DNA of 64,000 bases from positions 60,887-124,886 of the forward strand of contig DUBO01000051.1 of NCBI GenBank assembly GCA_012960245.1, read 5' to 3'. Under the pieces are notes generated by a model, which saw only the letters and a program-made list of their open reading frames with translations, was not told where the DNA came from and ran no database searches. Position numbers and translations under genes: made by a program. This stretch comes from Candidatus Binatota bacterium. GTDB lineage: Bacteria > Desulfobacterota > Binatia > UBA1149. Shown one piece after another: positions 7,263 to 57,801 of the stretch; the first letter of the stretch is position 1, and each line of letters opens with the position of its first letter.

Positions 7263-10200
7263 ATGTTTGTATTCTCGGTTGTTACTAACGGTTTCTTTTC
7301 TCGTGCTGCTGTCTCGACAGCAGCCCTGGCCCTTATTCTCGGCTCGGCCGCTACGGCATTCTCACAGCCGGCACCGCCGCCTGCAGGTGAACCGTTGTTT
7401 GCCCCTCCACCGTCGTCGCTCAAGACGGCACTGGTTCCCGAACCGTCGACGCTCGCCGAGTACGTTGTCGACAAGCAGGCCGCCATCACCCTGGGGAAGG
7501 CCCTTTTCTGGGACATGCAGGTGGGCAGTGACGGGGTGCAGGCCTGCGCTTCCTGCCACTTCAGCGCGGGCGCCGACAGCCGCGATAAAAACACCGTTAG
7601 CCCAGGCCCCAACGGGGTGTTTGACAGCCTGGGGCCCAACGGGACGCTGACCGCTGCCGACTTTCCATTTACGAGTTTTGCCGACAACGACAACCGCCTC
7701 TCGACTCGTATTCACTCTGACGATGTCGTCGGTTCGCAGGGCGTTCACAAGGTCGATTTCCTTGACGTAGTGCTCGGTAGTCCCCTGGCCTTCGACCAGG
7801 GAACCGTGCTGCTCGACCCCACCTTCCAGGTTGGCGGGGTAAACACCCGGCAGTCAACCGGCCGCAACACCCCGTCGACCATTAACGCGGTATTCAACTG
7901 GCGTAACTTTTGGGACGGTCGTGCCCAGCCGCTCTTCAACGGTGTCAACCCCGGTGGCGCACACGATCCGTCAGCCCGCGTGATCGAAATACTCGCTGGT
8001 AGCGACGGTGTCCTCGGTACCCTAGACGACACCGTAGAGGCGGTGTCGGTGCTCATAGACAACGCCAGTCTTGCTTCGCAGGCGGTGGGTCCTCCCAACA
8101 GCGAAGTAGAGATGGCCTGGGCTGGGCGTATTTTTCCCAAGATAGGTAAGAAGATGCTTGCGCCCGGAATCATTCCGCTGGCCAAACAGCTGGTTCACTC
8201 CAGTGATAGCGTGCTGGGCGCGCTGGCCAAGACCAACACCAACCCCAACCTTCCGGGCCTCGATGCGAGCTACGAGACGCTCATACAGCAGGCTTTTGCG
8301 CCCCAGTGGTGGGATTCGGACAAGGTCGTGACTTTTCCCGGGACGGTTGCCTGTGGCGACACGCTCGGCATCGATGCCTCCACCTGCGCGGGCTTCCCGA
8401 CCATTTCTGATCCCACCGGTGCGCTGCTGACAACGAATGAGTACACGTTGATGGAGGCCAACTTTTCGCTTTTCTGGGGACTGGCTGTGCAGTTATACGA
8501 GGCCACCCTGGTATCGGACGACTCGCGTTTTGACCAATTCATGGACGGCGGCGGCATAGGCGGCAACACCGAGCACCTGCTCAACGCCGAGGAGAGGTTG
8601 GGCCTGGATGTTTTTCGCAACATCGGCTTCGCGCCGGGCGTCAGCGCCGGGCTCTGCGTAGGTTGCCACGTGGGCGCGGAGATGACGGCCGCGGCTACCG
8701 CTGCCATCAACTCGCTGGAGCCTTTTTTCCCGGGTGAACCGCCTCCCGTGCCCGAGTTACCGGTCGAGCAGATGCTCATGGCCTTCGGCGTGGGGCTCAA
8801 CAATCTGAACTTCCAGACAGATCCGCTGGCCATACTGACGCCCGAGTTTGCCGGGGTTCTGACCTTTGACCCGCGAGGATCGTTGATGCAGATCACACAG
8901 GACTCGGTGCCCACCGGCGCCTGCAACCTGGACGGGAGCTGCCCCAATGTCACCACAGCCGGTTTCGACGGAGTGCCGGGTACCGGTGACGACGGCAGTG
9001 TTCCCCAGCATTGCACCTGCAACAATTTTGACACAGCGACCCAGACCTGTGTTTCCGAGGGATGTGCGCCGGCCATTTTTACCCGCGACTACCTCGGTAC
9101 CCCCGGCCAGACCCAGCTGGGTGCGACCCCCCCCGCCGACTGCGGCGTGGGGTCGACCCTGAGCGCCCAGCTGTTTCCTACCGGCGCCGGTTCGCTCGTA
9201 AACCCCTTGTCGTTCGCCAGCGCGCTGTTCGTGCAGCAGCCTGACTGCGCGGCCGACCTGTCGACCGGTACGCTCGGCCTCGCGCCGGGCGACTACAGCT
9301 TTTTTGTAGACGGCATAAACCGCGGCACCATGCGCGTGATTGCCGACGTGATCTATGACTTCGGCTTCTACAACATTGCAGTGACCCCGACCTTCGACGA
9401 CGTGGGCGTGGGTGGCGATTCGCCTCCAGGTCAGCCGATATCGGTTGCCAGGCGCGCGGTCATGATGGCCGACGGAGAGCCTTGCGGCCAGGACCCCATT
9501 AACAACCCGCTGGTCTGCGACATGCCCGAACTCACGGGCGCGTTCTGCCTGCCCGGTGTGAGTGGCAACTGCACCATCCAGGATCCGTCGTTCGTGGCGC
9601 CCGGCACTCTCGAAGTGGTTGACGGTGCCTTCAAGGTGCCCCAGCTGCGCAACGTGGAACTGACTGGTCCGTACTTTCACAACGGTGGCAAGGGCACCCT
9701 CGGCCAGGTCGTTGATTTCTACAACCGTGGAGGCGACTTCCACGAGGACAACCTTCTGGAACTGGCACCGGAGATAATCTTTCTTGCCATGCCCCAGGTT
9801 GACCGCGACGCGTTGGTGGCCTTTCTCAAGACGCTCACCGACGAAAGGGTGCGCTACGAGGCAGCTCCCTTTGACCATCCGGAAATTTCGATACCCGTTG
9901 GCCAGGTTGGTGATGACCTCGCCGTGAGCGACACCAACTTTGACGGTAACGCTGACGATGTCTTCATGCACCTGGCAGCCGTTGGCGCACCGGGTAACTG
10001 CACGGGCGTAGACGGCTCAGCTCGCAGCTGTGATGACAACAACTCGTGCACAGATGACAGCTGCGTGCCCGAGTTCGGTTGCGTGAACGCACCCAATACA
10101 GCGCTCTGTAATGATGGTGACTCCTGCACCACGGCCGACCAGTGTGATGGAGCCGGCGGTTGTGCGGGCGTAGACACATCGCTGGTCGATTGTGACGACG

Positions 10201-12509
10201 CGGACGTGTGTACCGATGACAGTTGCGATGCGTTTGCCGGTTGCACGAACAGCTTCAATGCGTCCGGCTGTAGCGACGGCAACGCCTGTACCACGGGTGA
10301 TACCTGCAACGCGGGTATCTGCGTTGGTGGACCGCCACCGGCTTGTGACGACGGCAACGTTTGTACCGCAGATCTTTGCGATAGCAGCGTGGGCTGCGTG
10401 TCGTTGCCTACGTCGGTGAGTTGTGACGACGCGGATCCTTGCACGATCGATGACTTCTGCGTCAACGCTGCCTGCGTGGGCTCCACGCCCCCGGACTGCA
10501 GCGACGGCAATGTCTGCACGGACGACAGTTGCGTGAGCGCGGCCGGTGGCTGTGTGAACCTGCCCAACTCGGCGCCCTGCGATGATGGCGATGCCTGCAC
10601 GACCAACGACACCTGCCAAGCCGGTGTCTGCGTGGGTGGCGCGGCGCCCGACTGCGACGATGTCAACGGTTGCACCGACGACACTTGTGACAGTGCAATC
10701 GGCTGCGTAAGCGCAAACAACACGGTGTCTTGTGAGGACGGCGAGTTTTGCACCGACGGCGACCAGTGTTCGGGTGGCTCCTGCCAGCCGGGTGCGGCCA
10801 GGGATTGCTCGGATGGCAACGCCTGCACGACAGACAGCTGCGATGACGCTGCCAACCAGTGCCAGCACGTGGCCGACGATGGCTTCTGCGATGACAGTAA
10901 CCCCTGCACGAACGATTTCTGTTCGACGGCAACGGGCTGCTTCTACCAGGATAACGGCTTTGCCTGCGACGACGGGGACGCCTGCACGACCATCGACACC
11001 TGCCAGGCCAGTGTGTGTGTGGGTAGCACGCCGCCCAACTGCGACGATGGAAACGGTTGCACCGACGACGTCTGCGACAGCGCGACGGGCTGTGCGAACA
11101 ATGACAACACTGCCCTTTGCAGCGACGGCGACGCCTGTACTACCGGCGATGCCTGCTCGGCGGGCAGCTGCTTTGGCGGCGCCGCGCCTGATTGCGACGA
11201 CGGTAACGTGTGCACGGCCGACACCTGCGACACAGCCCTGGGTTGTCAAAATACCAACGTAGCTGTCGCCTGCGACGACGGCGACGCCTGCACCACGACC
11301 GATACTTGCTCGGCCGGCGGTTGCGTGGGGGGTGCTGCCCCTGATTGTAACGACGCCAACGGCTGTACCGATGACGTCTGCAATAGCGCGACGGGTTGTT
11401 CCAATACTGACAACACCACGGCCTGTGACGATGGTGACGCTTGCACAACCGGTGATATTTGCGCGGCTGGTTCGTGTGCCGGTGTAGATACTTCGGCCCA
11501 GGATTGCGAAGACGGAAATTCCTGCACGCTGGACTTCTGCAACCCTGCGAGCGGTTGCGTGAACGCTGCTACGGCTGGTAGTTGCGACGACGGCGACGCC
11601 TGCACGGATGACGACCAATGTATCAACGGGTCCTGCTTAGGCGGAGGCGCGCATGATTGTGATGACGCCAACGGTTGCACCGACGACAGTTGCGACAGCG
11701 CGACTGGTTGTGCCAACAGCGACAACACGGCCGCCTGCGACGATGGCGACGCCTGCACCACGGCTGATACCTGTGCGGCGGGTAGCTGCGTGGGCGGGGT
11801 CGCGCCGGATTGCGACGATGGCAACGGTTGCACCGACGACACCTGCGACAGCACGAGTGGCTGCGCTTACTCTAACAACACAGCCACTTGCGATGACGGC
11901 GAACCGCTCACCCCGGTAGACCAGTGCATCGCCGGCCAGTGCGTGGGCAGTGGATTGCAGTGCCCCGTACAACCAGTGGCGGGTTGCCGACAGCCGGTCA
12001 AAATTGGCAAGGCCAGGCTGGCGCTCAAAAAGAATGCTGTGGTGACGGCCAAGGACCGCATGAAGTGGAAGTGGGCCAACGGGTCTGCCACCGCGGCCGC
12101 CGACTTTGGTGACCTCGTTGGTGGTAGCGGTGAAGGTCTCGCCATTTGCTTCTACGATGAAGTTGCCGGCCAGGCCTCGCTTGTGATGGACCAGCTGGTG
12201 CCCGCGGGTGGCAGCTGCGGCGGCAAGGATTGTTGGGTAGAAACACCCAGGGTCATTAAGTTCAATGATCGATCGGGCGCAGCCAGCGACGGGATAACGG
12301 CATTAACTATCAAGCCCGGCGCCGACGGCAAGGCCAAGATCAAGGTCAAAGGCTCTGGTACGCGACTGGGAGTGGGTTCGCTGCCCCTGTCGATGGACAC
12401 CAAGGCTACCATGCAGGTCATAGCCGAGCCTGGTAGTTGCTGGCAGGCCGATTACTCGTCAGCTGCCAAGAACACCGACGGGCAGTTCAAGGCCAAGAGT
12501 TCGAATTGA
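7263..12509 (+). CDS. Secreted di-heme cytochrome c peroxidase (CCP/MauG family) domain with large insertions, fused to CTDC-type Cys-rich repeats (about 10000-11930) and the shared C-terminal domain (about 11957-12509)
   Basis: A GGAGG RBS sits 8 nt upstream and the N-terminus looks like a signal peptide. Heme motif 1 ([23 protein letters not shown]) is at 7545-7559. Heme motif 2 (GLCVGCH) is at 8655-8669. The CCP signature [31 protein letters not shown] is at ~9640-9730. These are followed by ~25 CDDGxACT-type repeats. The C-terminal KWKWANG...CWQADY block is homologous to the C-terminus of the upstream gene. Confidence 0.85.
   Translation: [1748 protein letters not shown]
10000..11935 (+). 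repeat. CTDC-type Cys-rich coding tandem repeats in the peroxidase fusion gene
   Basis: Same repeat family as 1400-2575 and 3826-6475; some units are near-identical at the nucleotide level. Confidence 0.8.
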
Positions 12510-13042
12510 TGTCGAGTCTCCGGCTTGAAGAATATGCGAAGAAAGCCCTGCTCGGGGTAGCGGTAGCCATGATTTTGGCGGCTATCGCGACCCCTGGCCT
12601 GGCTGTCGCCTCCTCATCCGACTTGGACAAGTGCAAGTTAGCCATCGCGAAAGCCGACTCCAAGTACGTGGGCAAGTACACCAAGGCCTCGCGACGGTGC
12701 ATGGACGACGGGGGCTCTGCTTCTGCCTGTATGGGTAGTACTGGCGGTGACGCTCGCTTTGTGGCCGCAGTGGGCAAGGCTCAGTCGCGGGCGAACAAGC
12801 TGGTCCTGAAAAAATGCTCCGCCTGGGGGGCCGCTGAAAAGGTTCGCTACGACCTCGGCTACGGTTCCAGCTGCCCAGGCATCGCCCAGCCCGGTAACTG
12901 TGATTTCGAACTTTCGGGGCTCGATATGCAGGGGGAAGACAATGACCTGCTCGAGTGCCTGGGGTGTCTTCATTCTCACATGGCCGAATGTTTGACTGCT
13001 GCTGCCTACAATATCGCCGTGCCTGGAGGTCGTTGTTTCTGA
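12509..13042 (+). CDS. Small secreted Cys-containing domain protein (177 aa), paralogous to the N-terminal domain of the downstream multicopper-oxidase fusion
   Basis: The ATG overlaps the TGA stop of the peroxidase gene (TGATG), which implies translational coupling. There is a signal peptide (MSSLRLEEYAKKALLGVAVAMILAAIATPGLAVA). The conserved pattern KC..RC..SC..KCS..DLGY.S.CPG....CDF..G.D..GE.ND.L.CL.C matches residues ~50-170 of the 13068 protein. Confidence 0.6.
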   Translation: MSSLRLEEYAKKALLGVAVAMILAAIATPGLAVASSSDLDKCKLAIAKADSKYVGKYTKASRRCMDDGGSASACMGSTGGDARFVAAVGKAQSRANKLVLKKCSAWGAAEKVRYDLGYGSSCPGIAQPGNCDFELSGLDMQGEDNDLLECLGCLHSHMAECLTAAAYNIAVPGGRCF

Positions 13043-13067: not shown

Positions 13068-16000
13068 ATGAACAATTCTCAACCATTTTATCTACCGGTC
13101 TTCAAGACGATTCGGACAGCGCTGTTATGTTCGGTGTTGATGCTGCTTGTTCCCTTGACGGCAGTGGGCGCCGAGCAACAGCAGGCAGGGGATAGATTTC
13201 CTTCTAATCCGCTAGGAGCCTGCAGCACCAAGCTTGCTGCAGGAGGAGACAAGCTGTTCAAAAAGGCGGCCAGGGCACTGCAAAGATGCCAGAAGGCCGA
13301 CATGTCGACCTCGTGTCTACTCAACAGGCCGGCGAGCGTAGCGGGCGAGCTGTCGGGCTACGCGACCAAGGCACGACGTTCGATGGCGGGCAAGTGTTCG
13401 CGTATTAATTATGATTTGGCTGGATACCCTTCCACCTGTCCGGGTTTCGGAGACGCTTGTGATTTTACCGTGGCTGGCTGGGATGTCACCGGCGAAAAGA
13501 ACGACATGCTTGACTGCCTGCTTTGCATGTACGACGCAGCAGCGAGGCGGAGCCTTGAACTGCAGGTCGTGGTACCGCGTTGCGGCGACGGCATGGACAA
13601 CAGGCTCGACGAAATTTGCGATGACGGTAACGATGACAGTAACGACGCCTGCCTCGGAGACTGCCGCGCGGCGAGCTGTGGTGACGGTTTTGTCTGGGCC
13701 GGCCAGGAGAGCTGCGACAACGGTGACGCTAACTCCGATACAGAGGCAGATGCCTGTCGCAGCGATTGCACCCCTGCGGTCTGCGGTGATGGGACGGTAG
13801 ACAGCGGCGAAGAATGCGATGACTCGGGTGAATCGGCCAGCTGCGACAGCGATTGCAGCCTGGCTGTCTGCGGTGACGGTACCGTAAATGCCTCGGCCGG
13901 CGAGACTTGTGACGACACGGGTGAATCGGCTAGCTGCAACAGCGACTGTACGGTGGCCTCCTGCGGTGACGGCACGACTAATGGCACGGCCGGCGAATCC
14001 TGTGATGACGGCAACGGGGATAACACCGACGCCTGTCTCAACGATTGTTCCCCAGCCTCCTGCGGTGACGGTTTCACATGGGCGGGCTCAGAAGACTGCG
14101 ACGACGGGAATGCCGACAACAATGATTCCTGCCTGGACAGTTGCACAGCGGCGACTTGCGGCGATGGTTTTGCCTGGGCGGGCACCGAAGAATGCGACGA
14201 CGGCAACGCCGACAACGGTGACTCCTGCCTGGATAGTTGCGTCACCGCGACCTGTGGCGACGGCTTTTTATTCTCGGGCAGCGAGCAGTGCGACGACGGA
14301 GCGGCCAACTCTGATACCGCGCCCGACACTTGCCGCTCTGATTGCGAACTGCCGAGCTGTGGTGACGGGGTAGCCGACAGTGCGGAGCAATGTGATGATG
14401 GTAACGCCGACGACAACGACTCCTGCCTCGGCTCCTGTGTCGATGCGTCCTGCGGCGACGGTCATACCTGGGCTGGAATAGAAGCTTGCGATGCGGCTGG
14501 CTATAGCGCTTCGTGCAACCTGGACTGCAGCGTCTCGGTGTGCGGTGACGGCAAGGCCAACCCGGCGGCGGGTGAGGCCTGCGACGCGGCGGGCGAGAGC
14601 GCGGTTTGTGACCTCGATTGTAGTCTTGCGTCCTGCGGTGATGGAACGATGAACACGACGGCAGGCGAGGCTTGCGACGCGGCGGGTGAGAGCACAACTT
14701 GTGATCTCGACTGCAGCCTTGCCTCCTGCGGTGACGGAACAACGAACGCCACGGCAGGCGAGACCTGCGACACGGAAGGCGAAAGCGCCTCCTGTAACGC
14801 CGACTGCAGTACTGCCGCCTGTGGTGACGGCAAGGTCAACAGCAGCGCGGGCGAACAGTGCGATGCGGCGGGAGAATCTGATTTATGCGACGGCGATTGC
14901 ACGGTGGCTGCCTGTGGCGACGGCACCACTAACGCTACTGCCGGCGAGGCCTGCGACGACGGTAACAACAGCAACGGCGATGGCTGTCTCGATAGCTGTG
15001 CCACGGCCAGCTGCGGCGATGGCTTCGTCTTCGCGGGCGAAGAAGCCTGCGACGATGGCAACTCTTCAAACGCTGATGCCTGCCTGGCTGATTGTGCGGT
15101 TGCGAGCTGCGGCGATGGCTTTGTCTTCGTCGGCCAGGAAGCCTGCGATGACGGCAATTCCGACAACGGTGACGCTTGCCTCGACAGCTGCGAGACGGCG
15201 TCCTGCGGCGACGGTTTTCTGTTCGTCGGCGGGGAAGAGTGCGACGATGGCAACAGCAGCGACACCGACTCCTGTAGCGCGGCCTGTGATTCACAACGCG
15301 TAATTTCAGCCGGCGTGGTAGCGCTGGACCAGGTGCTTACCTACAACCGCTGGGGTAGCCACCAGGCTGCGGGGATGATTTTTGCGCTCCGGCGCGACGT
15401 GGTCGACATGGCCGGTAACCCAATAGGGGAGGGCGGAGTGCCAGGCCAGGTAATGCTCAGGCCAGGCAAGCGCCCGCGCCCGCTGGTGCTCAGGGCCAAC
15501 GAGGGGGATGTTCTGCAGGTCCACTTTACAAACCTGCTGGCACCGGCCAGGCCCAACGCCAAGGGAACGACCACGAGGCTGGCTTCGATGATGGTAAACG
15601 GCACGCGTGTGCTGGGCAACACCCACGACCCGGTCGTGACCGGGCTCGAGGGAATCGCACCGGGGCAGTCTACCGACTACTCGTGGAAGGCCGGGCACGA
15701 GGGCACAAAGTTGTTCTACAGCCTCGCCGGACCGGCTGGCGGTGGTGGCGACGGTGGCCAGCTTTCGCTCGGACTTTTCGGAGCTTTAAACGTCGAGCCC
15801 GAGGGCAGCAGCTGGTATCGCAGCCAGGTGACAGCGGCAGAGTTGGCGACGGCGCGGTCCCAGGCCGAAGCACCTGCGCTGCTTAACTACGACGCGGTAG
15901 ACATTGCAGGAGTGCCGGTGCTGCGCATGCTCGACGACGCCGGTGAACTTGTGCACTCTGATCTCAACGCGATCATCGCCTACGACCAAGCAGCAGATAA

Positions 16001-19000
16001 CGTGCAGTCGACCTCCGAGGCCACTTTCAGGGAGTTCTCGGTAATCTTTCACGACGAGATCGAGCTGACCCAGGGATACCCCCAACTTGATAACGATGTA
16101 CTCAAGCCGGTGAGCGATTCTTTTGCCATCAATTACGGCTCCGAGGGCCTGGGCTCGCGCCTGCTGGCCAACCGCCTGGGCGAGGGGCCGGCTGCGAACT
16201 GCCTGGAGTGCCCCTACGAAGAGTTCTTCCTCGAGTCAGCCGTGAGCGGTGACCCGGCCCTGCTGAATGTTTTCGAGGATGATCCCTCCAACGTTCACCA
16301 CAGCTATATCAACGACAACGTAAAATTCCGCAACCTGCACGCGGGCCCGAGAGAAACGCATATCTTTCACCTGCACGCTCACCAGTGGCTGGCCAACGCG
16401 GGTGAGGGTATCGACGACAACTCGGTATACCTTGATTCGCAGGCAATAAGCCCGATGAGTAATTTCACCTACGAGATCCAGTACGGTGGCGCGGGCAACC
16501 GCAACAAGGTCGTCGGTGATTCAATTTTTCACTGCCATCTCTATCCCCACTTTGCCCAGGGCATGTGGGAGCTGTGGAGAGCACACGATGTACTGGAGGA
16601 TGGAACCCGTCGCCTGATGGACGGAGAACTGGGACCGGGAACAAACCCGCTCACCGGGGTGACGGTTGGCGGCACGCCCATACCCGCGCTTGTTCCAATG
16701 CCCGACTACGCGATGGCCCCCGATCCCAGCTACGGGCCGAACGCATTGCCCGGGTATCCTTTCTACATGGCGCAGGTCGCGGGCCACCGGGCTCCACAAG
16801 CACCGCTTGACGTGGCCAGCGACGGCGGACTGCCGCGACACGTGTTTACTGACGGCGGCCAGCGAAGCACGGGTGCGGGGGCTGCCAGTTTTGATTTCCA
16901 CGTCGACGTGCAGGTCGCCAACATACAGGTGCTGCCCCAGGAGGGAACGGCGCTTGAGCAGGCCGCGATGGCTTTTCACGCCAGCCCCGGTGTGACTACC
17001 ACCACCCCCGAGGGTGACGCAGCTTTCTTTGAACTGAACGGCTTGCCTTCCACCGCCGGTGCCCCTTACGCTGAGCCCTGTCCGCCCCTATGCGGCAGCG
17101 CCCAGCAGGGCGAGTACCAAGCAGCTTGCATGGACGGCTGCACGGGCAAACCCTGGGATCCCGAGTGCTCATTGCGTTGTGAAGACTGCACCACGGCCCA
17201 CCGCACCTACCACGTGTCGTACATAGAGCTCGACCTGTTGGCCAACGCGGCCGGCTGGCACGACCCACAGGGGCGCATAAACGTGCTCGACTCAGACGTT
17301 TCTCTCTACGAGGGACAAACGACCACGGCGGATCCGTTTTTCTTCAGGGCTAACTCGGGTGAGTGCGTCACGTTCAAGCACACCAACCGCGCGCCCAAGG
17401 AGTTTGACCTGGATGATTTCCAGGTGAGGACGCCCGCTGATGTGGTTGGCCAGCACATCCACCTTGTCAAGTTCGATGTGACAAGCTCCGATGGCTCGGG
17501 CAACGGGTGGAACTACGAAGACGGTACTTACTCTGCTGAAGCCATCGCCGAATGGACGGCGGCCAGCAATGCTCTCGGTGGGTCGGCCACCTCGGGATAC
17601 GACGCGGCGGGCAACCCCGTCAACGTGTGGGGCGACGGCGCAACCTCGGGGGTGCCCACGACGCTGACGGCCGACGGTGGCTTTCAGACCACCACGCAGA
17701 GGTGGTGGGCAGACCCCTTGCTCAATAAGCATGGCCAGGACCGCAGCATAAGAACGGTGTTTACCCACGATCACTTTTTTCCGTCTACCGGCCAGCAGCA
17801 CGGTTTTTACAACGCGCTCACCATAGAACCTGCCGGTTCGCAGTGGCTCACGCCCGACCTGACCGATGATCTTTCGCTGCCGCTCGACCCCGCCCGCGGT
17901 GTGGGTACGCAGGCATACATAATTGCCGCGGACAGCAAGACCTGCACGGTGAGCGGGGAGGCGGTAGCCGTTGAACCGTTGCCCTGCAACTCGGACGCCG
18001 ACTGCCCTGAAGAAGAATGGTGCATGAATATGGACCACCGTGAGTTCATGATGGCGGTGGCCGATCTTGCACTTCTTTATACGCCCCTGGGTGTGCCCAT
18101 AGGCGCGCCGGCCCAGCCAGAGGCCATATCGAGTAAGGGTGGAACAGACGTAGTAAACTACCGTAACGAACCTTTTGCCGGACGCGGCGGCCCTCATCCC
18201 GATGCCGATTTGGATACGCTGAACTCGGGTAACGGCGTACCTTCCGGCGCGTTCAGCTCCTGGGTAAACGGCGACCCCTTTACCGAGATATTCAAGGCCC
18301 GCGAGGGCGAACGAATGCAGGTGCGGCTTATACAGGGCGCACAACAGGCCCAGCACAGCTTCAACCTTCACGGCGGGTTGTGGCCCGAGGCCATAGACGA
18401 CTCTGGGTCCCCGATGGTTCAGGGCCAACCCATAGGTATATCCGAACACTTCGAGTGCGACATGGGCGTGGCTCCGCCGGTGACCGGCGGCGGCGTGGCC
18501 GATTACCTGTACCATTTCGGCGCCAATGATCATTTGAACGACGGAAGCTGGGGTCTCATTCGCGTGTTTGCTGACGGGCTTTCTTTTGATGCCAGCGACT
18601 CTGAACTCAGGTCGGCGCAACTGGCCGCCGCGGCTGCCGGCGAGCGCAACGACTGCCTTGAGGATTCACCCGCGCGCTTGTTCGAGGTCGAAGCCTGGCG
18701 GGCCGCCGACCTGCTGCCCGGCGGCCGGCTGGTGTACAACCAGCGCGAGGACATTTACGACCCCAACGCGCGTATCTTCTTGCTGGCCGAGGACCGGGCC
18801 GCACTGGCGGCGGGTACCAAGGCCGTCGAGCCGCTCGTGCTCAGGGCCAACTCCGGCGACTGCATCACGGTGTCGTTGACTAACCACATGCCAGACACCG
18901 AGGTATCGATGCATCCGCAGCGCGTGTCCTACGACGTACGCTATTCTGACGGTGCCAACGTGGGCTTGAACTTTCTCCAGACCGCTATGCCCGGTGAGAC

Positions 19001-19706
19001 TATCAACTACCACTGGTTCGCCGGCTATACGTGGCACGGATTTTCCGAGCCTGAGGAGCTGGGTCCGGGCAACCTGCGCTCCTACGGCGACTTCCTGGTC
19101 GATGCTCGGCAGGGCTTGCTCGGCGCGTTGGTAATAGAAGAAGCCGGTGCCAGCTGGACCGACACCGTGACCGGCACGGCGGCTTCGTCGGGAACAGCGG
19201 TAGACGTGACCACGGCCTCTGGTGAAACCTTTCGCGAGTTCGTAGTTCTCTACCAGGAAGACCTGGACTTGTTCACGGGCCAGGGAAGGATTCCCGACGC
19301 CAAGGTCGATCAGGCCGAGAAGGCGTTCAATTACCGAACCGAGAATTTCTGGGCGCGGCTGGGCGTTCCTACTTCCGTAGACTTGAATGACGTGGCGTTT
19401 CCCTCCGATTTTTTCAGCGGCCCTATCGAGACACCTTTGTTCAGGGCAGCCGACGGGCAGAAGGTTCGTTTCCACGTACTGCAGCCCTCCGGCGGTCCCC
19501 TGCAGCACACCTTCCTCGTGCAGGGGCACGACTATCCGGACAACCGCCAACCGATGGCGGGCACCGGGGGGGCGAGCATTATAGCCCCCTTCGTGGCCCG
19601 TACCATGGACCTGGAAGGCGGCGCGCGCGCCGGCACATGGCTCTATCACGACGGCACGGGGTACGGTCGGGCGGGTGGCCTCTGGGGCCGGCTGGAAGTC
19701 GACTGA
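13068..19706 (+). CDS. Giant secreted fusion protein: N-terminal Cys domain, about 45 myxo-type disulfide-rich repeats (13590-15290) and a large multi-unit multicopper oxidase (15290-19706)
   Basis: Signal peptide-like N-terminus. Repeats of the form CGDGxVxxGEECDDGNxxxxDxCLxxC (TIGR02232-like spacing). Two cupredoxin domain-1-like segments (LVLRANEGDVLQVHFTNL, LVLRANSGDCITVSLTNHM), each followed by GLxGALxVEP. An HIFHLHAHQW (HxHxH) motif at 16355-16385 and a type-1 Cu motif HCHLYPHFAQGM at 16531-16566. Additional HIHLV, THDH and TWHGF His-rich motifs. Confidence 0.8.
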   Translation: MNNSQPFYLPVFKTIRTALLCSVLMLLVPLTAVGAEQQQAGDRFPSNPLGACSTKLAAGGDKLFKKAARALQRCQKADMSTSCLLNRPASVAGELSGYATKARRSMAGKCSRINYDLAGYPSTCPGFGDACDFTVAGWDVTGEKNDMLDCLLCMYDAAARRSLELQVVVPRCGDGMDNRLDEICDDGNDDSNDACLGDCRAASCGDGFVWAGQESCDNGDANSDTEADACRSDCTPAVCGDGTVDSGEECDDSGESASCDSDCSLAVCGDGTVNASAGETCDDTGESASCNSDCTVASCGDGTTNGTAGESCDDGNGDNTDACLNDCSPASCGDGFTWAGSEDCDDGNADNNDSCLDSCTAATCGDGFAWAGTEECDDGNADNGDSCLDSCVTATCGDGFLFSGSEQCDDGAANSDTAPDTCRSDCELPSCGDGVADSAEQCDDGNADDNDSCLGSCVDASCGDGHTWAGIEACDAAGYSASCNLDCSVSVCGDGKANPAAGEACDAAGESAVCDLDCSLASCGDGTMNTTAGEACDAAGESTTCDLDCSLASCGDGTTNATAGETCDTEGESASCNADCSTAACGDGKVNSSAGEQCDAAGESDLCDGDCTVAACGDGTTNATAGEACDDGNNSNGDGCLDSCATASCGDGFVFAGEEACDDGNSSNADACLADCAVASCGDGFVFVGQEACDDGNSDNGDACLDSCETASCGDGFLFVGGEECDDGNSSDTDSCSAACDSQRVISAGVVALDQVLTYNRWGSHQAAGMIFALRRDVVDMAGNPIGEGGVPGQVMLRPGKRPRPLVLRANEGDVLQVHFTNLLAPARPNAKGTTTRLASMMVNGTRVLGNTHDPVVTGLEGIAPGQSTDYSWKAGHEGTKLFYSLAGPAGGGGDGGQLSLGLFGALNVEPEGSSWYRSQVTAAELATARSQAEAPALLNYDAVDIAGVPVLRMLDDAGELVHSDLNAIIAYDQAADNVQSTSEATFREFSVIFHDEIELTQGYPQLDNDVLKPVSDSFAINYGSEGLGSRLLANRLGEGPAANCLECPYEEFFLESAVSGDPALLNVFEDDPSNVHHSYINDNVKFRNLHAGPRETHIFHLHAHQWLANAGEGIDDNSVYLDSQAISPMSNFTYEIQYGGAGNRNKVVGDSIFHCHLYPHFAQGMWELWRAHDVLEDGTRRLMDGELGPGTNPLTGVTVGGTPIPALVPMPDYAMAPDPSYGPNALPGYPFYMAQVAGHRAPQAPLDVASDGGLPRHVFTDGGQRSTGAGAASFDFHVDVQVANIQVLPQEGTALEQAAMAFHASPGVTTTTPEGDAAFFELNGLPSTAGAPYAEPCPPLCGSAQQGEYQAACMDGCTGKPWDPECSLRCEDCTTAHRTYHVSYIELDLLANAAGWHDPQGRINVLDSDVSLYEGQTTTADPFFFRANSGECVTFKHTNRAPKEFDLDDFQVRTPADVVGQHIHLVKFDVTSSDGSGNGWNYEDGTYSAEAIAEWTAASNALGGSATSGYDAAGNPVNVWGDGATSGVPTTLTADGGFQTTTQRWWADPLLNKHGQDRSIRTVFTHDHFFPSTGQQHGFYNALTIEPAGSQWLTPDLTDDLSLPLDPARGVGTQAYIIAADSKTCTVSGEAVAVEPLPCNSDADCPEEEWCMNMDHREFMMAVADLALLYTPLGVPIGAPAQPEAISSKGGTDVVNYRNEPFAGRGGPHPDADLDTLNSGNGVPSGAFSSWVNGDPFTEIFKAREGERMQVRLIQGAQQAQHSFNLHGGLWPEAIDDSGSPMVQGQPIGISEHFECDMGVAPPVTGGGVADYLYHFGANDHLNDGSWGLIRVFADGLSFDASDSELRSAQLAAAAAGERNDCLEDSPARLFEVEAWRAADLLPGGRLVYNQREDIYDPNARIFLLAEDRAALAAGTKAVEPLVLRANSGDCITVSLTNHMPDTEVSMHPQRVSYDVRYSDGANVGLNFLQTAMPGETINYHWFAGYTWHGFSEPEELGPGNLRSYGDFLVDARQGLLGALVIEEAGASWTDTVTGTAASSGTAVDVTTASGETFREFVVLYQEDLDLFTGQGRIPDAKVDQAEKAFNYRTENFWARLGVPTSVDLNDVAFPSDFFSGPIETPLFRAADGQKVRFHVLQPSGGPLQHTFLVQGHDYPDNRQPMAGTGGASIIAPFVARTMDLEGGARAGTWLYHDGTGYGRAGGLWGRLEVD
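13590..15290 (+). repeat. Myxo-type disulfide-rich repeat array (~108-nt period), coding
   Basis: CGDGxxNxxAGExCDxxGESxxCxxDCxxAxCGDG is reiterated about 45 times. Confidence 0.85.
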
Positions 19707-19756: not shown

Positions 19757-19807
19757 CCCCCCTAACGGGGGGTACGGGCCGCTGTTTCCCCGTTTGGGGG
19801 CTTGTTG
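19757..19807 (+). terminator. Two GC hairpins (CCCCCC-taac-GGGGGG; CCCC-gttt-GGGGG) followed by a CTTGTTG tail; candidate intrinsic terminator after the oxidase gene
   Basis: Inverted repeats read directly from the sequence. The T-tract is weak. Confidence 0.35.
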
Positions 19808-19847
19808 AACTCCCCCGACAGGGTAACTTTTTATAAGGGGTTACAGC

Positions 19848-21746
19848 TTGCGGGGGTTTCCTAAATACGAAAGAAAGGTGGGATTGTCGGTGGCGATCCT
19901 GTTGCCGCTGGCGATGGTTTTCGGCTGCCCGGTGCCGGTGGATGCCGCGGATTCCAAGCCTGCGGGCGTTGAATTCTCGGTACACAACCTGGATTCCAAG
20001 GCGGGTCAGGCAATCAGGGCGGGCGGGGACCTTCTGGTCAAGTTCAGACTGTCTGATCCCGATTCTGGCTTCGGACTGTCGCAGTTGCACCCGGCTGCCT
20101 GGCTCAGCCCGCGCGAGAAGGGCGCTCCCGCGCCGTCGCAGCAGGAGTGCGAAAACCTGATACGCGGCATGGGGCAGTTCGGTGTCACGCACGCCGACGA
20201 CGATCTCAACGGTTACTACATCCTCACCCTCAACGCTGACAATTCAGTCTCTATTCTCAACCCCATGGTCAGCCTGAACACTTCCAACCAGAAGGCCCAC
20301 ATTCTCCTGGACGGCGAGGCGCACGCATGGGATTTTGACCCCAACACGGCGCTGGCCTGGGTGACCTTGCCCGACGATAACAAGGTGGCCGTTGTTGACG
20401 TCAAGGGCCGACGAGTCGCTGCCTACCTGGCAGTGGGCAACGCGCCGCGGTCGATAGAAGTACAACCCGACGGTCGTTTTGTGTGGGTGGGCAACGACGA
20501 TTCGGGTACCGTCAGCGTGTTGGCCCCAAGCGGCCAAGGACAACTTCGTTCGATCGAAGTGGGGCGAGGCCCGATAGATTTTGCCTTCGACGAACAGGGG
20601 CGCTACGTGATCGTGTCAGCGGGGGGTGCCGGCCGCGTGTCGGTGATCGATACGGGGAGCATGAAAGTCGTATCTTCTCTCGAAGTGGGCGAAGGCTCAC
20701 TTCAGGTCGCCTGGGCAGAACTGGCCGGCGCTTTTTACCTGCTCAACCCTTCGCGCAACACGGTTACGGTCGCTTACCCCCGCGAGGGCCGGGCTGCCGT
20801 GGAGATCGATGTCGCCGAGGGCGCCACGACGATTGAAGCCGATCCGCAGGGACGCTGGGTATTCGTGATCAACCCCGAGGCGCGCGCGGTTGACATCATC
20901 GATACCGCAGCTGCGAGGCTGTCGCGCAGGGTAGCGCTCGAGGAAAAACCCAGCCACGTTCTTTTCAGCTCGATCTTCGCCTACGTCTACCACGCCGACA
21001 GTTCCAACCTGTCGCTGGTAAAGCTCTCTGCGCTTGCGGATGCTGAAGCTGCACCGGTGCTGATCATCCCCATGGGAGTTGAGCGACCCGAGGGAAGAAT
21101 GGTGCGCCCGGGCCTGTTGCCCATGGACATTCTGCCCGATGAGGGCGGCGCCGTGGTGGCCAACCCGGTCGAGAAGGTCATCTATTTTTACACCGACGGA
21201 ATGATGTCTCCGATGGGTTCGTTCAAGACATGGGCGTCGAACCCGCTGGGCGTGATTCTCTACGACCGCTCGCTGCGGGAGCGCGGCAACTCGGGCGTCT
21301 ACGAGACGGTTACCCGCCTGGACGAACCCGGGGTGTACGATGTTCCCTTCGTGCTGGGCAGCCCACGGGTAGTGACCTGTTTTGAGTTCGAGGTCGCGGG
21401 AGAGCCCGGGCACGGGGAAGCCGTGAAGCCGTTGTTCCGCGGACTGTTCGTGGGCGAGGATCTCGCCCCGGGTGACGAGGTGACCCTGCGCTACCAGGTG
21501 GTCGACGGTCGCGATGGCCGTCCCCTGACCGGTCTCGACGACCTGAGATTGATAACCTTTCGCGCGGGCGAGAACTGGAGCGCGAGGTCCTGGACCAAGG
21601 AAGTAGAAGACGGCGTGTACGAGGCGGGTGTCACCTTTCCGCGCGGCGGCCGTTACCTGGTGCAGGTGGAGGCACGCTCGCTGGGCATCGGTTTCGGCGA
21701 TGCTGGAAGGGACTACGCCGACGTGTCGCAGGGAGCGACGAGATGA
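19848..21746 (+). CDS. Secreted, possibly lipoprotein, YVTN-family beta-propeller protein with an Ig-like C-terminal domain
   Basis: Signal peptide with an FGC motif. Repeated segments of the form YVIVSAGGAGRVSVIDTGSMKVVSSLEVGEG are typical of 40-residue YVTN beta-propeller repeats. The stop overlaps the next start (ATGA). Confidence 0.7.
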   Translation: MRGFPKYERKVGLSVAILLPLAMVFGCPVPVDAADSKPAGVEFSVHNLDSKAGQAIRAGGDLLVKFRLSDPDSGFGLSQLHPAAWLSPREKGAPAPSQQECENLIRGMGQFGVTHADDDLNGYYILTLNADNSVSILNPMVSLNTSNQKAHILLDGEAHAWDFDPNTALAWVTLPDDNKVAVVDVKGRRVAAYLAVGNAPRSIEVQPDGRFVWVGNDDSGTVSVLAPSGQGQLRSIEVGRGPIDFAFDEQGRYVIVSAGGAGRVSVIDTGSMKVVSSLEVGEGSLQVAWAELAGAFYLLNPSRNTVTVAYPREGRAAVEIDVAEGATTIEADPQGRWVFVINPEARAVDIIDTAAARLSRRVALEEKPSHVLFSSIFAYVYHADSSNLSLVKLSALADAEAAPVLIIPMGVERPEGRMVRPGLLPMDILPDEGGAVVANPVEKVIYFYTDGMMSPMGSFKTWASNPLGVILYDRSLRERGNSGVYETVTRLDEPGVYDVPFVLGSPRVVTCFEFEVAGEPGHGEAVKPLFRGLFVGEDLAPGDEVTLRYQVVDGRDGRPLTGLDDLRLITFRAGENWSARSWTKEVEDGVYEAGVTFPRGGRYLVQVEARSLGIGFGDAGRDYADVSQGATR

Positions 21747-22381
21747 AACAAGGCTTGCTCACAGTGCTGCTATCGGCAGCGATGCTTGCTTGCCCGTTCT
21801 TGATGCGGGCGGCAACGGCCGCGGGCGTGAGCGCGGGGGGAAACGACGCTGGCGACGTCAGGCTTATCGACGTGCCGCTGCTCGACCAGGATGGCAAGCG
21901 CATGATGCTGGTCAGTGACCTGGTCGGGGAGAAGATCGTGGTAATGAACTTCATTTTTACTACCTGCCCGTCGGTGTGCCCCATGCAGTCTGCAATTTTT
22001 GCAGGCCTGCAGAAGGAGCTGGGTGATCGCCTGGGCAACGAGGTCAAGCTGTTGAGCCTGAGCATAGACCCGGTCACCGATGTGCCTGCGAGGCTGGCGG
22101 AAACCGCCGCTCGCTACGGGGCGCGAGAGGGCTGGACCTGGCTCACGGGCGAGAAGGCCGACGTCGACAGGGCCCTGGTCGGCCTGGGTGCGTACTCGAG
22201 CGAGGTTGAATCGCACCCGGCGATGATCCTGGTGGGAGACGGCAGCACGGGCGATTGGACACGCTTCTATGGTTTTCCGCGTCCGGTAGACGTGCTGGCC
22301 CGAGTGGACGCGCTCGTCGCGGCACGGATCGCGGGGCCGGGAGCGGTTGCCGCGGAGCCGGCAGAAGAAAACCAGCGATGA
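21743..22381 (+). CDS. SCO1/SenC family copper chaperone (thioredoxin fold, CxxxC)
   Basis: VVMNFIFTTCPSVCP...LLSLSIDPVTDVPARL...GWTWLTG is the SCO1/SenC signature. ATGA overlap with the upstream gene. Confidence 0.8.
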   Translation: MKQGLLTVLLSAAMLACPFLMRAATAAGVSAGGNDAGDVRLIDVPLLDQDGKRMMLVSDLVGEKIVVMNFIFTTCPSVCPMQSAIFAGLQKELGDRLGNEVKLLSLSIDPVTDVPARLAETAARYGAREGWTWLTGEKADVDRALVGLGAYSSEVESHPAMILVGDGSTGDWTRFYGFPRPVDVLARVDALVAARIAGPGAVAAEPAEENQR

Positions 22382-23043
22382 AATGCTCGAGCTCTAAAAC
22401 TTCGACGATTAGTTTCGCAACGGTGAGCGTGACGGCCCTGGTGTGCTTTCTGCTGCTCGGTGTAACCCGTTCCGCCGCGGCCGCCGCCGCCGAGACTCAA
22501 GCTACTACCACCCCCGTTTCTGTCACTGCCGCCCGCGACGGAGACGAGGCCGCGCGAAGCTGGTTCACCGAATCCATCTTGCTTGACCAACGCGGTCGAG
22601 AGCTGAAGTTCTACAGCGATGTTCTCAAGGACCAGGTAGTGGTCGTCAACTTCATCTTTACCCGTTGCCCCGGCACTTGCCCGGTGCAGACGGCCAAGAT
22701 GTCGGAACTCTACAAGGAACTCGGTGGAGAAATGGGGCGGACGGTGCGCTTCGTATCGATTTCGGTAGACCCCGACAACGACACACCGGCGAAGTTGCTT
22801 GAATTTGCAGACCGCTACAAGGCTGGTGACGGCTGGTTTTTTCTTACGGGTGAGCAAAAAAGTCTCGACCAGGTAACGCGCAGGCTCGGTGCTCACAATA
22901 GTCTTGCCGAGGCGCACTCGCCCTTGTTCCTGCTCGGAAATGTCAGCCGCGAACACTGGGTCAAAATGCGCCCGAGCGCTTCGGTGGCAACGCTGGCGGG
23001 TGAAGTACGAAAACTGCTCGCGGTCGATAAAGAAGATGGCTGA
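22378..23043 (+). CDS. Second SCO1/SenC family copper chaperone paralog
   Basis: Internal ATG at 22378 (MKCSSS..., signal-like TM segment) overlapping the upstream stop (ATGA). VVVNFIFTRCPGTCP...FVSISVDPDNDTPAKL...GWFFLTG. Confidence 0.8.
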   Translation: MKCSSSKTSTISFATVSVTALVCFLLLGVTRSAAAAAAETQATTTPVSVTAARDGDEAARSWFTESILLDQRGRELKFYSDVLKDQVVVVNFIFTRCPGTCPVQTAKMSELYKELGGEMGRTVRFVSISVDPDNDTPAKLLEFADRYKAGDGWFFLTGEQKSLDQVTRRLGAHNSLAEAHSPLFLLGNVSREHWVKMRPSASVATLAGEVRKLLAVDKEDG

Positions 23044-24673
23044 CAGGATGACGGCGGCACTGCCAGCGCGGTTACTCGTCGTGGCGGCGCTGGGTGGGGT
23101 GCTGGTTGCCTTGGTTGCCGATCCGGCAGTGGCTGGCTGGGGCGAACAGGAGCAGCGCGGCAAGTCGGTTTACGAGCAGGGCAGGGCCACGGGCCAGGTG
23201 AAGGCACTGCTGGCGGGGCCGGGCCTCGAAGTCGATGCGGCCCAGTTTCCCTGCGTAAACTGTCACGGCCACGACGGCGCGGGTGTCATTGAAGGTGGCG
23301 TCACCACTGCCGACATCAGGCCGTCGCGCTTAGCGTTCGCGGCCGATGCCACCAGGGACTTCGGCAGGCAGCGGCCGGCCTACGACAACGAGGCGCTGGC
23401 AATGGCGATCAGGTCGGGTCTCGACCCAGGTGGCAACAGCCTTCACCCGGCCATGCCTCGCTACCGTATCAACGACGACGACTTGGCCGACCTGCTGGCC
23501 TACATGCGCCACCTGGGGCGAGAGCCTGTAGCAGGGGTAGCAGAAGATGCGGTGAGGGTCGCCGCGTTGCTGCCTTCCGCTGGACCGCTGGCCGCCCCCG
23601 CCCGCGAGGTTGAGCGTGTGCTCGCGGCCTTCGAAGAATACACCAACGAACAGGGCGGGGCCTACGGTCGGCGCTTGCTGCTGGAGCTCAAGCACTACGA
23701 TCCGTCGGTGGATGCCGGTGGCGTTGCCGCGGTGGACGAGTTGCTGGCGGGCGAACGCCCGTTCTGCCTCTTGTCGAGCATGGGCCTGGGGGCCGCTGCG
23801 TTGGCCACGCTTGAACAAGCCGGCGTTCCGCTGGTCGCGCCGCTGGCGGTACCTGCCAGTGACGGCTACGGCGCCGCCCGAAACACCTTTTTTGTTTTTA
23901 CCTCCGTGGCCGACCAGGCCAGGGTATTGGTCGATCATCTGGTGGCCGAGCTACCCGGCCTGGGCGGGGGCGCGGTGCTGCTGCACGACTCTGGTCCCGA
24001 GGGGCTGGCGGGCAAGCTGGGTGTAGAAAGCCAACTGTCCGGCTACGACCAGACGCTGTCGGCGAGTATCCAACTGGCAGCTGCGGGAGGCGTTGAGTCT
24101 GTCGTGGCGGAGCTCGTCGCGGCCGGAACAGCGGGCCAACGGCCCTCGGCTGTATTTTTCTTTGCCGATGGAGAGCGAGCGGCAGAGTTCCTGCGCCTGG
24201 CCGCTGCCGAAGACTGGCACCCGCTGCTGTTGGGACCCGCCGAAAGGCTGTCCCCCGGCCTGGCCGGCCTGCCCCCGGCTTTGCTCGCCGGACTGCGCCT
24301 GGTTTCGCCTGCCGGGGTGCCGGACCTAGACGCCGGCCGTAGCAGGGAGTTTCTCGCGGTGATGGAAAGAGAAGGAATTGCGGGGAGCTACCGCGCGTTT
24401 CAAATCTCGGCCTGGGCTGGAGGCTTGCTGCTGAGAGAAGGGTTGCGGAGATCTGGCCGTCGTCTTACCACACCTCGTTTCATGGCATCGCTCACCGGCC
24501 TGCGCGGGTTCGATACCGGCTTGCTGGCGCCGTTGTCATTTGACGAAAACAGCAGGGTGGGTGTGGCCGGCGCCACGGTGCTGCGGTTTTCAACGGCCGG
24601 CCCGGGCTTGTCGGTTGCCCGTAGATGGCGCGAACCCCTGGCGGCATCCGCCGTTGTAGAGCCTCAACTGTAA
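23036..24673 (+). CDS. Periplasmic mono-heme cytochrome c domain fused to a type-I periplasmic binding protein (Leu/Ile/Val-binding-like) fold
   Basis: Start MADRMTAALPARLLVVAALGG overlaps the upstream stop by 8 nt. A CVNCH heme motif is followed by a Met-containing loop. The remaining ~450 aa has a PBP-like alternating alpha/beta pattern. Confidence 0.65.
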   Translation: MADRMTAALPARLLVVAALGGVLVALVADPAVAGWGEQEQRGKSVYEQGRATGQVKALLAGPGLEVDAAQFPCVNCHGHDGAGVIEGGVTTADIRPSRLAFAADATRDFGRQRPAYDNEALAMAIRSGLDPGGNSLHPAMPRYRINDDDLADLLAYMRHLGREPVAGVAEDAVRVAALLPSAGPLAAPAREVERVLAAFEEYTNEQGGAYGRRLLLELKHYDPSVDAGGVAAVDELLAGERPFCLLSSMGLGAAALATLEQAGVPLVAPLAVPASDGYGAARNTFFVFTSVADQARVLVDHLVAELPGLGGGAVLLHDSGPEGLAGKLGVESQLSGYDQTLSASIQLAAAGGVESVVAELVAAGTAGQRPSAVFFFADGERAAEFLRLAAAEDWHPLLLGPAERLSPGLAGLPPALLAGLRLVSPAGVPDLDAGRSREFLAVMEREGIAGSYRAFQISAWAGGLLLREGLRRSGRRLTTPRFMASLTGLRGFDTGLLAPLSFDENSRVGVAGATVLRFSTAGPGLSVARRWREPLAASAVVEPQL

Positions 24674-24769: not shown

Positions 24770-24876
24770 TCGGATTTTATCACTATGCGGCGCTTCCCTA
24801 GCTTCGGGCTAGCTGTTATCTGCCCGTCTCCCCTGCAGTCTTTTGTCTGGAAGACAACGGGGGGCTGGAGTGTCAG

Positions 24877-42915: not shown

Positions 42916-42941
42916 CGTCGGTTTACCCGGCCGCCCCTTAG

Positions 42942-43943: not shown

Positions 43944-43944
43944 T

Positions 43945-45258: not shown

Positions 45259-45366
45259 CAAGCGGTTCTCCGGTACGAGCAGGGTCGGGCCGCGAGCTAT
45301 CGCGCGGCCTTGCAGAAAGCCCACCACCGCCCGGGGGGCAGCTGCGGGCGCCAACGGGGTTGGCTG

Positions 45367-55049: not shown

Positions 55050-55067
55050 GGAATACGGAAACCGGCG

Positions 55068-56260: not shown

Positions 56261-56261
<1 letters not shown>
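55068..56261 (+). CDS. cpaE: CpaE/TadZ pilus assembly ATPase-like protein (receiver-like N-domain plus MinD/ParA fold)
   Basis: [22 protein letters not shown] deviant Walker A. Confidence 0.8.

Positions 56262-57801
<1,540 letters not shown>

Follow-up and report, generated by a model that had tools for sequence, protein, structure and literature searches.

Bacterial six-domain multicopper oxidases have been described with a type-1 copper only in domain 2, a trinuclear centre lying between domain 2 and domain 3, along with degenerate sites elsewhere (PMC3600357), whereas in ceruloplasmin type-1 sites occupy domains 2, 4 and 6 and the trinuclear centre is placed between domains 1 and 6 (PMC3600357). 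Among the bacterial proteins, MnxG of Bacillus sp. PL-12 has 1227 amino acids (aa) and works with the small subunits MnxE/MnxF. MnxG of Pseudomonas putida GB-1 (PputGB1_2447, about 1950 aa) is encoded in an operon with a YVTN beta-propeller as second gene, then two SCO1/SenC genes, a cytochrome c/substrate-binding protein as fifth and a SurA-domain gene as sixth (PMC11409713 Table 4; the operon is also drawn in PMC8218464 Fig. 2c), and the published Leptothrix mofA operon reads mofA-mofB (FKBP/mip)-mofC (cytochrome c) (PMC8218464). Through Mn(II) oxidation, bacteria shape the cycling of trace metals and carbon; for the open and deep ocean, knowledge of the enzymes responsible comes only from a small number of cultured models (Bacillus spores, Pseudomonas, Leptothrix). 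Here we analyze the gene at 13068..19706 (+) of a 64,000-nucleotide (nt) stretch of a Candidatus Binatota genome (assembly GCA_012960245.1, contig DUBO01000051.1, positions 60,887 to 124,886 of the forward strand; hereafter the window). We read the interval 15290-19706 of this gene as the catalytic part of a secreted six-domain MnxG-family oxidase, whose gene belongs to an mnxG-type operon in an uncultured marine member of Candidatus Binatota, with Mn(II) as the likeliest substrate; from sequence comparisons and structure models, we give this reading a probability of about 0.6.

Domain architecture and copper sites

The oxidase region scored 669 bits against the NCBIfam MnxG model NF041487 (E 1.2e-200), and aligned to chain A of PDB entry 9bxa, the MnxG of Bacillus sp. 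PL-12, collinearly across all six cupredoxin domains (E 7.3e-115). In Pfam, Cu-oxidase_3 matched aa 790-912 (38.7 bits, cut-off 21, E 1.2e-9) and Cu-oxidase_2 stayed just under its threshold (19.6 bits, cut-off 20.4); in the PDB sequence search, ascorbate oxidase (1aoz) matched the stretch that holds the copper-ligand motifs described below. More than 4376 homologues with E <= 1e-10, from very diverse phyla, were found among the candidates examined. Judged by these scores, the similarity to copper oxidases lies far beyond chance, and the catalytic core is a new member of a large known family. A first-pass annotation of the window had suggested an MnxG/ceruloplasmin-type six-domain multicopper oxidase and recommended a profile search against copper-oxidase families as a check; the searches above, the conserved His ligands, the profile-profile comparisons and the AlphaFold models described below all bear this suggestion out.

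The interval 15290-19706 is not a separate gene: it corresponds to aa 742-2212 plus the stop codon of a larger one, so that the oxidase region makes up the C-terminal 1471 aa, about two thirds, of a 2212-aa protein. In the list of open reading frames (ORFs) and in the translation, ORF 13068..19706 (+) is intact, a single uninterrupted frame. The identical 2212-aa product was called on all 16 contigs read that carry the gene, and four displayed occurrences come from four separate samples (NCBI, JGI, Logan). The same protein is already public in Candidatus Binatota and Deltaproteobacteria metagenome-assembled genomes (MAGs) as HIF64445.1, HIL13229.1 and MEO2136231.1, annotated as "hypothetical protein" or "cysteine-rich repeat protein". 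One of the identical genes (locus L087) is on the 100-kb JGI contig GBIDBA_10000974 (JGI 3300001683); we take the prefix "GBIDBA" to denote a Guaymas Basin hydrothermal-plume assembly, an assumption for which a literature search on the prefix found nothing. Antisense ORFs inside the gene (e.g., 17292..18620 and 18666..19649, both on the minus strand) were rejected as by-products of the 62% G+C content, since it is the product of the plus strand that shows conservation and that was called as a gene on each of these contigs. The whole gene and the parts of its oxidase region are as follows:

13068..19706, +, whole gene: signal peptide, head domain, 18 Cys-rich acidic repeats and six-domain multicopper oxidase (ORF list, translation)
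15291..16010, +, domain D1, odd-type cupredoxin without copper ligands, holding LVLRANEGDVLQVHFTNL (Pfam Cu-oxidase_3, hhalign)
16011..16835, +, domain D2, even-type cupredoxin with the predicted type-1 copper and half of the trinuclear-centre ligands (motifs at nt 16359-16388 and 16530-16565)
16836..17180, +, D2-D3 linker, whose 8-Cys stretch overruns the end of this part by 9 nt
17181..17885, +, domain D3, odd-type cupredoxin with predicted trinuclear-centre ligands, holding FFFRANSGECVTFKHTN (aligns to MnxG 446-608; hhalign)
17988..18605, +, domain D4, even-type cupredoxin with degenerate sites (hhalign, conservation, AlphaFold model)
18708..19310, +, domain D5, odd-type cupredoxin without a copper site, holding LVLRANSGDCITVSLTNHM and a non-conserved TWHGF (hhalign, conservation)
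19311..19706, +, domain D6, even-type cupredoxin with a Cys-less pseudo type-1 site, then the stop codon (hhalign, conservation, AlphaFold model)

A family alignment of 117 sequences was cut into six domain blocks, which were compared profile to profile with hhalign. The odd domains were mutually homologous at 97.7-99.6% probability (D1-D5 99.6%, D3-D5 99.4%, D1-D3 97.7%), as were the even domains at 96.9-99.0% (D4-D6 99.0%, D2-D4 97.6%). Pairs of an odd and an even domain mostly gave about 10% or less, the exceptions being D1-D6 (34.5%) and D2-D5 (60.2%, over only 17 columns). The profiles therefore show a triplicated two-domain unit and not two three-domain units: the oxidase consists of three odd-even cupredoxin pairs, as in ceruloplasmin. 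Structure models agree with this domain order. The AlphaFold model of D1-D3 (880 aa; predicted local distance difference test (pLDDT) 79, predicted template-modelling score 0.86) and that of D4-D6 (591 aa; pLDDT 85, predicted template-modelling score 0.88) both found 9bxa_A as their best PDB match with Foldseek (E 2.6e-39 and 1.8e-48, respectively; for D4-D6, template-modelling score 0.77 and root-mean-square deviation 3.8 A). That entry is titled "Structure of Mnx H340A complex". In both searches, the next-ranked matches were ceruloplasmin and coagulation factors V/VIII; ceruloplasmin, hephaestin and the factor V-VIII A domains also form six cupredoxins from a triplicated two-domain unit, and sequence identity to them is about 9-14%.

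The first-pass annotation had counted two domain-1-like modules and proposed a duplication, which we take to mean a tandem copy of a three-domain laccase-like unit whose second copy lost its copper sites in this protein. The two modules that it quoted are real, and D1 and D5, which hold them (LVLRANEGDVLQVHFTNL at aa 806, nt 15483; LVLRANSGDCITVSLTNHM at aa 1923, nt 18834), do share an LVLRANxGD motif; furthermore, domain 1 of Bacillus MnxG matches D5 best by sequence, and D6 ends in a Cys-less remnant of an HCH motif. The "xxxRANxGDxxxV" module occurs three times, however, the third copy being FFFRANSGECVTFKHTN in D3 (aa 1424-1440), and hhalign makes D3 a third odd-type and D4 a third even-type domain. 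A trinuclear centre built from D2 and D3 would also fall inside the first unit in the wrong order, with L3/L4 before L1/L2, and the degenerate sites are common to 113 homologues and to Bacillus MnxG. We therefore consider a two-unit duplication very improbable, and keep to the triplicated two-domain unit.

All four ligand motifs of multicopper oxidases (HxH, HxH, HxxHxH and HCHxxxHxxxxM) are present. In D2, HIFHLHAHQW at aa 1098 (nt 16359) provides H1098, H1101 and H1103, and HCHLYPHFAQGM at aa 1155 (nt 16530) provides H1155, C1156, H1157, H1161 and M1166; in D3, the two HxH motifs are H1463/H1465 in GQHIHLVKFD and H1567/H1569 in FTHDHF. The standard ligand assignment of multicopper oxidases was used to allot these residues. 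The type-1 copper is thus predicted to be bound by H1098, C1156, H1161 and the axial M1166, all in D2, and the trinuclear centre to lie between D2 and D3, with H1101, H1103, H1155 and H1157 on one side and H1463, H1465, H1567 and H1569 on the other. In a set of 113 homologues with 39-57% identity, the ligands were kept in every sequence, save M1166 in 112. The D2 motifs align to HVFHYHVHQW and HCHLYPAF of the 9bxa MnxG, where A340 is the H340A mutation, and the D3 motifs to its HIHFVKFD and HDHLF. The motif order, with HxxHxH and HCH before the HxH pairs, is unusual for three-domain laccases and normal for the MnxG family.

None of the other domains carries a complete site; they are copper-less relics. 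D1 has no His at the L1/L2-equivalent positions, here or in the family. D4 reads QHSFNLHG and, at aa 1813, YLYHFGANDH, in which HCH has changed to HFG without Cys; D6 reads QHTFLVQGH and, at aa 2191, WLYHDGTGYG, again without Cys (family consensus WLYRDGP); D5 retains one conserved His. The Cys-less pseudo-sites of D4 and D6 are common to the 113 homologues, with an equally degenerate family consensus. By these comparisons, there is a single type-1 copper site and a single trinuclear centre per protein, D1 and D4-D6 being relics as across the family, and the copper-site pattern is not new. Bacillus MnxG is alike in all these respects, with a type-1 site in domain 2 (HxxHxH, HCHLYP[H]F..GM), HIH.VKFD and HDH.F in domain 3, and Cys-less domains 4 and 6. 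The pattern of ceruloplasmin is absent, as D4 and D6 lack Cys and D1 lacks HxH.

These results also settle most of the residue-level claims of the first-pass annotation. Each of the eight strings that it quoted is found in a single place, no more than about 15 nt from the position given. Its intact type-1 site with axial Met in the first unit (HIFHLHAHQW plus HCHLYPHFAQGM) was correct, and the two motifs contribute half of the predicted trinuclear centre as well; its loss of the type-1 Cys in the last domain likewise holds. Of the extra motifs that it offered as trinuclear ligands, HIHLV (aa 1463) and THDHFF (aa 1566) supply the four His kept in 113 of 113 homologues, and TWHGF (aa 1988) was ruled out since it is not conserved. 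One intact and one degenerate set of sites was a fair description that overlooked the second Cys-less pseudo-site, in D4; since the pseudo-sites are shared by the homologues and had already been described for bacterial six-domain oxidases (PMC3600357), such a combination is the family norm.

Within D4-D6 (window 18348-19529), five His residues at aa 1763, 1768, 1794, 1949 and 2154 recur in numbers of homologues that range from 88 to at least 110 out of 113, and they might make up an extra metal site. In Bacillus MnxG, the D4 stretch that HMMER matched reads hsfn.hg.

Compared to Bacillus MnxG, the Binatota protein has longer linkers with Cys-rich insertions: eight Cys between D2 and D3 (aa 1337-1374, nt 17076-17189) and four between D3 and D4 (nt 17937-18023). 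Both are absent from most homologues (aa 1344-1353 are missing in more than 85% of them), and a 66%-identical Binatia relative (P0064) lacks the 8-Cys stretch; the insertions are lineage-specific.

The operon and the probable substrate

Four genes follow the oxidase gene on the same strand, with overlaps or short gaps between them:

19890..21746, +, YVTN-type beta-propeller with a C-terminal YtkA-like domain (Pfam, NCBIfam; PDB 1l0q, E 2e-30)
21743..22381, +, SCO1/SenC copper chaperone a, CPSVC (Pfam, E 6e-17)
22378..23043, +, SCO1/SenC copper chaperone b, CPGTC (Pfam, E 8e-20)
23036..24673, +, fusion of a cytochrome c (CVNCH) with a periplasmic binding-protein fold (Pfam Peripla_BP_6, E 6e-26; Cytochrom_C)

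Both SCO1/SenC proteins have an intact CxxxC motif, and the second gene was also called in two relatives (loci L001 and L005). By the order and families of their products, the four genes reproduce the P. putida GB-1 mnxG operon gene-for-gene, save its final SurA-domain gene. We compared 85 loci by tblastn with the window proteins (80 loci from named genomes and 5 from earlier look-ups). Even with many of the loci cut by contig ends, the beta-propeller adjoins the oxidase in 59 of the 85, SCO1 in 47 and the cytochrome c/binding protein in 37. Loci with the cassette include Leptothrix discophora, Sorangium, Minicystis rosea, Chondromyces and Nitrospira, as well as Acidobacteriota, Planctomycetota and Gemmatimonadota. 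In Leptothrix discophora (L008), a large multicopper oxidase is 45% identical over aa 5-1471 of the oxidase region and is also adjacent to the beta-propeller/SCO1/SCO1/cytochrome c cassette, which there is divergently oriented. The Leptothrix mofA operon differs, in that no FKBP-type gene adjoins the Binatota oxidase; MofA was compared by operon description only. The operon context of Bacillus mnxG differs as well. Conservation of the oxidase/beta-propeller/double SCO1/cytochrome c cassette across many phyla suggests a common extracytoplasmic copper-loading route for very large Sec-exported oxidases.

A mechanism can be proposed on this basis. The protein would be exported unfolded by Sec, since its signal peptide has no twin-arginine motif, and oxidative folding would take place outside the cytoplasm, given its total of about 98 Cys. 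Loading with copper would also take place there, a step in which the two SCO1/SenC chaperones would help, as perhaps would the YtkA-domain propeller. The substrate, most likely Mn(II) going to Mn(III)/Mn(IV), would be oxidised one electron at a time at the type-1 copper, and the H1155-C1156-H1157 triad would relay the electrons to the trinuclear centre for the reduction of O2 to water. Mn(II) oxidation is the best functional guess by analogy, because the family members with functional evidence cited here (Bacillus MnxG and P. putida MnxG) are Mn oxidases and because the operon is an mnxG operon. The locus shows a complete mnxG-type operon in an uncultured marine Binatota lineage, and with it a defined gene that can be sought in metatranscriptomes and metaproteomes and expressed.

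Several observations weigh against this reading. The nearest characterised enzyme, Bacillus MnxG, is about 23-27% identical, and the 669 bits compare with a cut-off of 3100 for the P. putida-type MnxG equivalog, so that the protein is a family relative and not an equivalog. The SurA-domain gene, sixth in the P. putida operon, was not found among the next genes with Pfam/NCBIfam. Nor did we recognise an MnxE/MnxF-type subunit, as the small ORF upstream (12509..13042) matches no PDB chain, those of 9bxa included. The loops of the copper sites are of low confidence in the AlphaFold model (block-mean pLDDT about 46-63), and the geometry of the sites is therefore taken from the motifs. Finally, we infer the roles of the N-terminal stalk described below, the beta-propeller and the cytochrome c protein from context only.

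The same MnxG-family enzyme may act on a substrate other than Mn(II), as a ferroxidase, a cuprous oxidase, a phenolic/humic oxidase or a periplasmic oxidase supplied by the cytochrome c protein encoded with it. Tests cover very few members of the family, against more than 4376 homologues in very diverse phyla; multicopper oxidases are often promiscuous; the score far under the curated equivalog cut-off leaves room for another activity; and the neighbouring genes include those for a cytochrome c fusion protein and a di-haem peroxidase. We consider a different substrate possible, if somewhat unlikely, because the members with functional evidence are Mn oxidases and the operon matches that of P. 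putida mnxG gene-for-gene. Mn(II) hence remains the substrate that we favour.

Downstream of the cytochrome gene, in place of the SurA-domain gene, we found a trypsin-like secreted protease with a PPC domain (24877-26523, +), followed by an FkbH-domain/HAD-IIIC protein (26628-28487, +); both genes are retained in a 95%-identical relative (L001). Promoter-like sites were as frequent as the shuffle mean (3 vs 3.2) and terminator-like sites numbered 24 against 15.8 (standard deviation 3.6). The sites were scattered within genes, and the scan gave no operon boundaries; only weak sites follow the oxidase gene (19801-19822) and the cytochrome gene (24798-24812).

A repeat-rich stalk fused to the oxidase

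The oxidase is preceded in the same protein by an N-terminal module with three parts:

13068..13172, +, putative Sec-type signal peptide, aa 1-35 (by reading of the translated sequence)
13173..13580, +, head domain, aa 36-171, 8 Cys, isoelectric point (pI) 8.7 (paralogy to ORF 12509..13042)
13581..15290, +, 18 tandem CGDG repeats, aa 172-741, 29-35 aa and 4 Cys each (Pfam DUF4215, TIGR02232)

The signal peptide shows K13/R16, the hydrophobic stretch TALLCSVLMLLVPLTAV and the boundary VGA/E. The head domain matched no Pfam family and is paralogous to the 177-aa product of the upstream ORF 12509..13042 (30% identity, E 3e-14). When 1.84 billion representatives were searched exhaustively, only 7 clusters contained it; among the clusters scanned against Pfam, two (P0271 and P0273) are NHL beta-propeller proteins, with the head at their N-terminus. 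The repeat array matches Pfam DUF4215 (E 2.9e-27) and the "cysteine-rich acidic repeat" TIGR02232 (E 3.6e-31), and resembles DUF4215/TIGR02232 proteins of Myxococcota and Binatia in its CGDG..C..DDGN..C...C unit, with four Cys and acidic composition. The first-pass annotation had put it at about 45 disulfide repeats, which overestimates it: there are 18 units, whose 72 Cys can form at most 36 disulfides, and the head domain adds 8 Cys. With 131 D+E against 7 K+R, the array has a pI of 4.05 and a net charge of about -124. The result is an acidic, disulfide-rich stalk of about 700 residues at the N-terminus of the oxidase.

Neither Bacillus nor P. putida MnxG has such repeats. In the homologues, the oxidase begins directly after the signal peptide (N-terminal extension of median 36 aa, maximum 181 aa), and, among the 120 best oxidase homologues, the DUF4215-oxidase fusion was found only in the Binatia lineage, in a 95%-identical cluster and one partial Binatia protein, 66% identical, whose junction is the same (P0001-P0003, P0064). 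The short extensions outside Binatia would be expected if an assembly or gene-calling artefact had joined two genes, a possibility to which we give practically no credence: the frame is single and uninterrupted, 16 contigs carry an identical protein, the four displayed occurrences come from NCBI, JGI and Logan, and the repeat/oxidase junction (…CDDGN…QRV-VVALDQ…) is conserved in the 66%-identical relative. Because of the 16 identical contigs and the conserved junction, the N-terminal fusion is real. A search with the repeat/D1 junction (aa 650-980) was dominated by repeat-only DUF4215 proteins, with the self match not listed. Most cluster members have 18 repeats, P0129 has 16 and P0003 has 14, a difference among near-identical relatives that reflects either real copy variation or the collapse of repeats in assembly.

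In the nearest relative, identity is 95% in the oxidase part, 82% in the repeats and 76% in the head. This gradient bears on an alternative in which the protein serves chiefly at the surface or in adhesion, without catalysis, and its oxidase-like part is a structural relic. Repeat scaffold makes up a third of the protein, copper sites are lacking in four of its six cupredoxin domains and the neighbours include giant Cys-rich repeat proteins, all of which would fit such a role. The oxidase is nevertheless the most conserved part, its 12 catalytic ligands are intact and invariant, and two copper chaperones are co-encoded, which makes a non-catalytic protein highly improbable.

Taken together, the head and the 18 repeats form a lineage-specific stalk. 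Elsewhere, DUF4215 repeats are fused to varied extracellular domains (C-type lectin, PPC, fibrinogen-C). Speculatively, the stalk probably holds the enzyme away from the cell surface, or anchors it there, and it may bind cations, an idea suggested by its composition. The fusion of this polyanionic module to an MnxG-type oxidase, along with the lineage-specific neighbours described next, is what is new at this locus; in the literature searched, of which coverage was incomplete, we found no description of a stalked oxidase or of MnxG-type oxidases in Binatota.

Upstream genes and the remainder of the window

Three genes lie upstream of the oxidase gene on the same strand:

7-6996, +, giant Cys-rich protein of at least 2329 aa with 233 Cys, probably starting upstream of the window (weak cohesin/dockerin-like matches, sub- or near-threshold)
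7263..12509, +, 1748-aa di-haem cytochrome c peroxidase/MauG-like protein with Dicty_CTDC-type repeats (Pfam CCP_MauG, E 1.5e-18)
12509..13042, +, 177-aa secreted protein, the free-standing paralogue of the head domain

Among the 85 loci, these three genes were found only in the 95%-identical relative L001. The start of ORF 12509..13042 overlaps the stop of the gene before it (TGATG), and the ORF is called as a gene in relatives. The peroxidase-like protein has CASCH at aa 95 and CVGCH at aa 465, with weak matches to the MbnH/MauG models of NCBIfam; its N-terminal di-haem part is followed by about 1200 aa that hold 124 Cys and repeats of the Dicty_CTDC type. It may belong to the oxidase system. 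The repeats of the two upstream giants showed no homology to those of the oxidase by tblastn, being of the Dicty_CTDC type, a different Cys-rich repeat.

The first ~400 aa of the giant protein had no Pfam, NCBIfam or PDB match. We did find 42%-identical homologues of this part, in two tandem copies, at three of the compared loci (L046 1524-5193, L055 4941-8616 and L083 4565-8397), in two Planctomycetota MAGs and one "Bacillota" MAG. In all three, they adjoin MnxG-like oxidase genes, which hints at a functional link of the giant protein to the oxidase.

A wider interpretation would join the polyanionic stalk, the head paralogue, the repeat-bearing di-haem peroxidase and the giant repeat protein into an extracellular Mn-mineralising assembly of deep-sea Binatota. 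We regard it as rather improbable. If it were true, the stalk would concentrate Mn2+/Ca2+ and template oxide nucleation away from the cell, the peroxidase would clear H2O2 that would otherwise re-reduce the Mn oxides, and this Binatota lineage could be one of the enzymatic Mn oxidisers that have long been sought in the deep ocean.

Elsewhere, the window carries ordinary chromosomal genes of a diderm: a TonB receptor, UvrB, UvrC, RND efflux genes, including a pump and its outer-membrane factor at 39841-45354 (-), and a Tad-type pilus secretin and ATPase at 53841-57820 (+). The RND and Tad genes support the presence of an outer membrane in the host.

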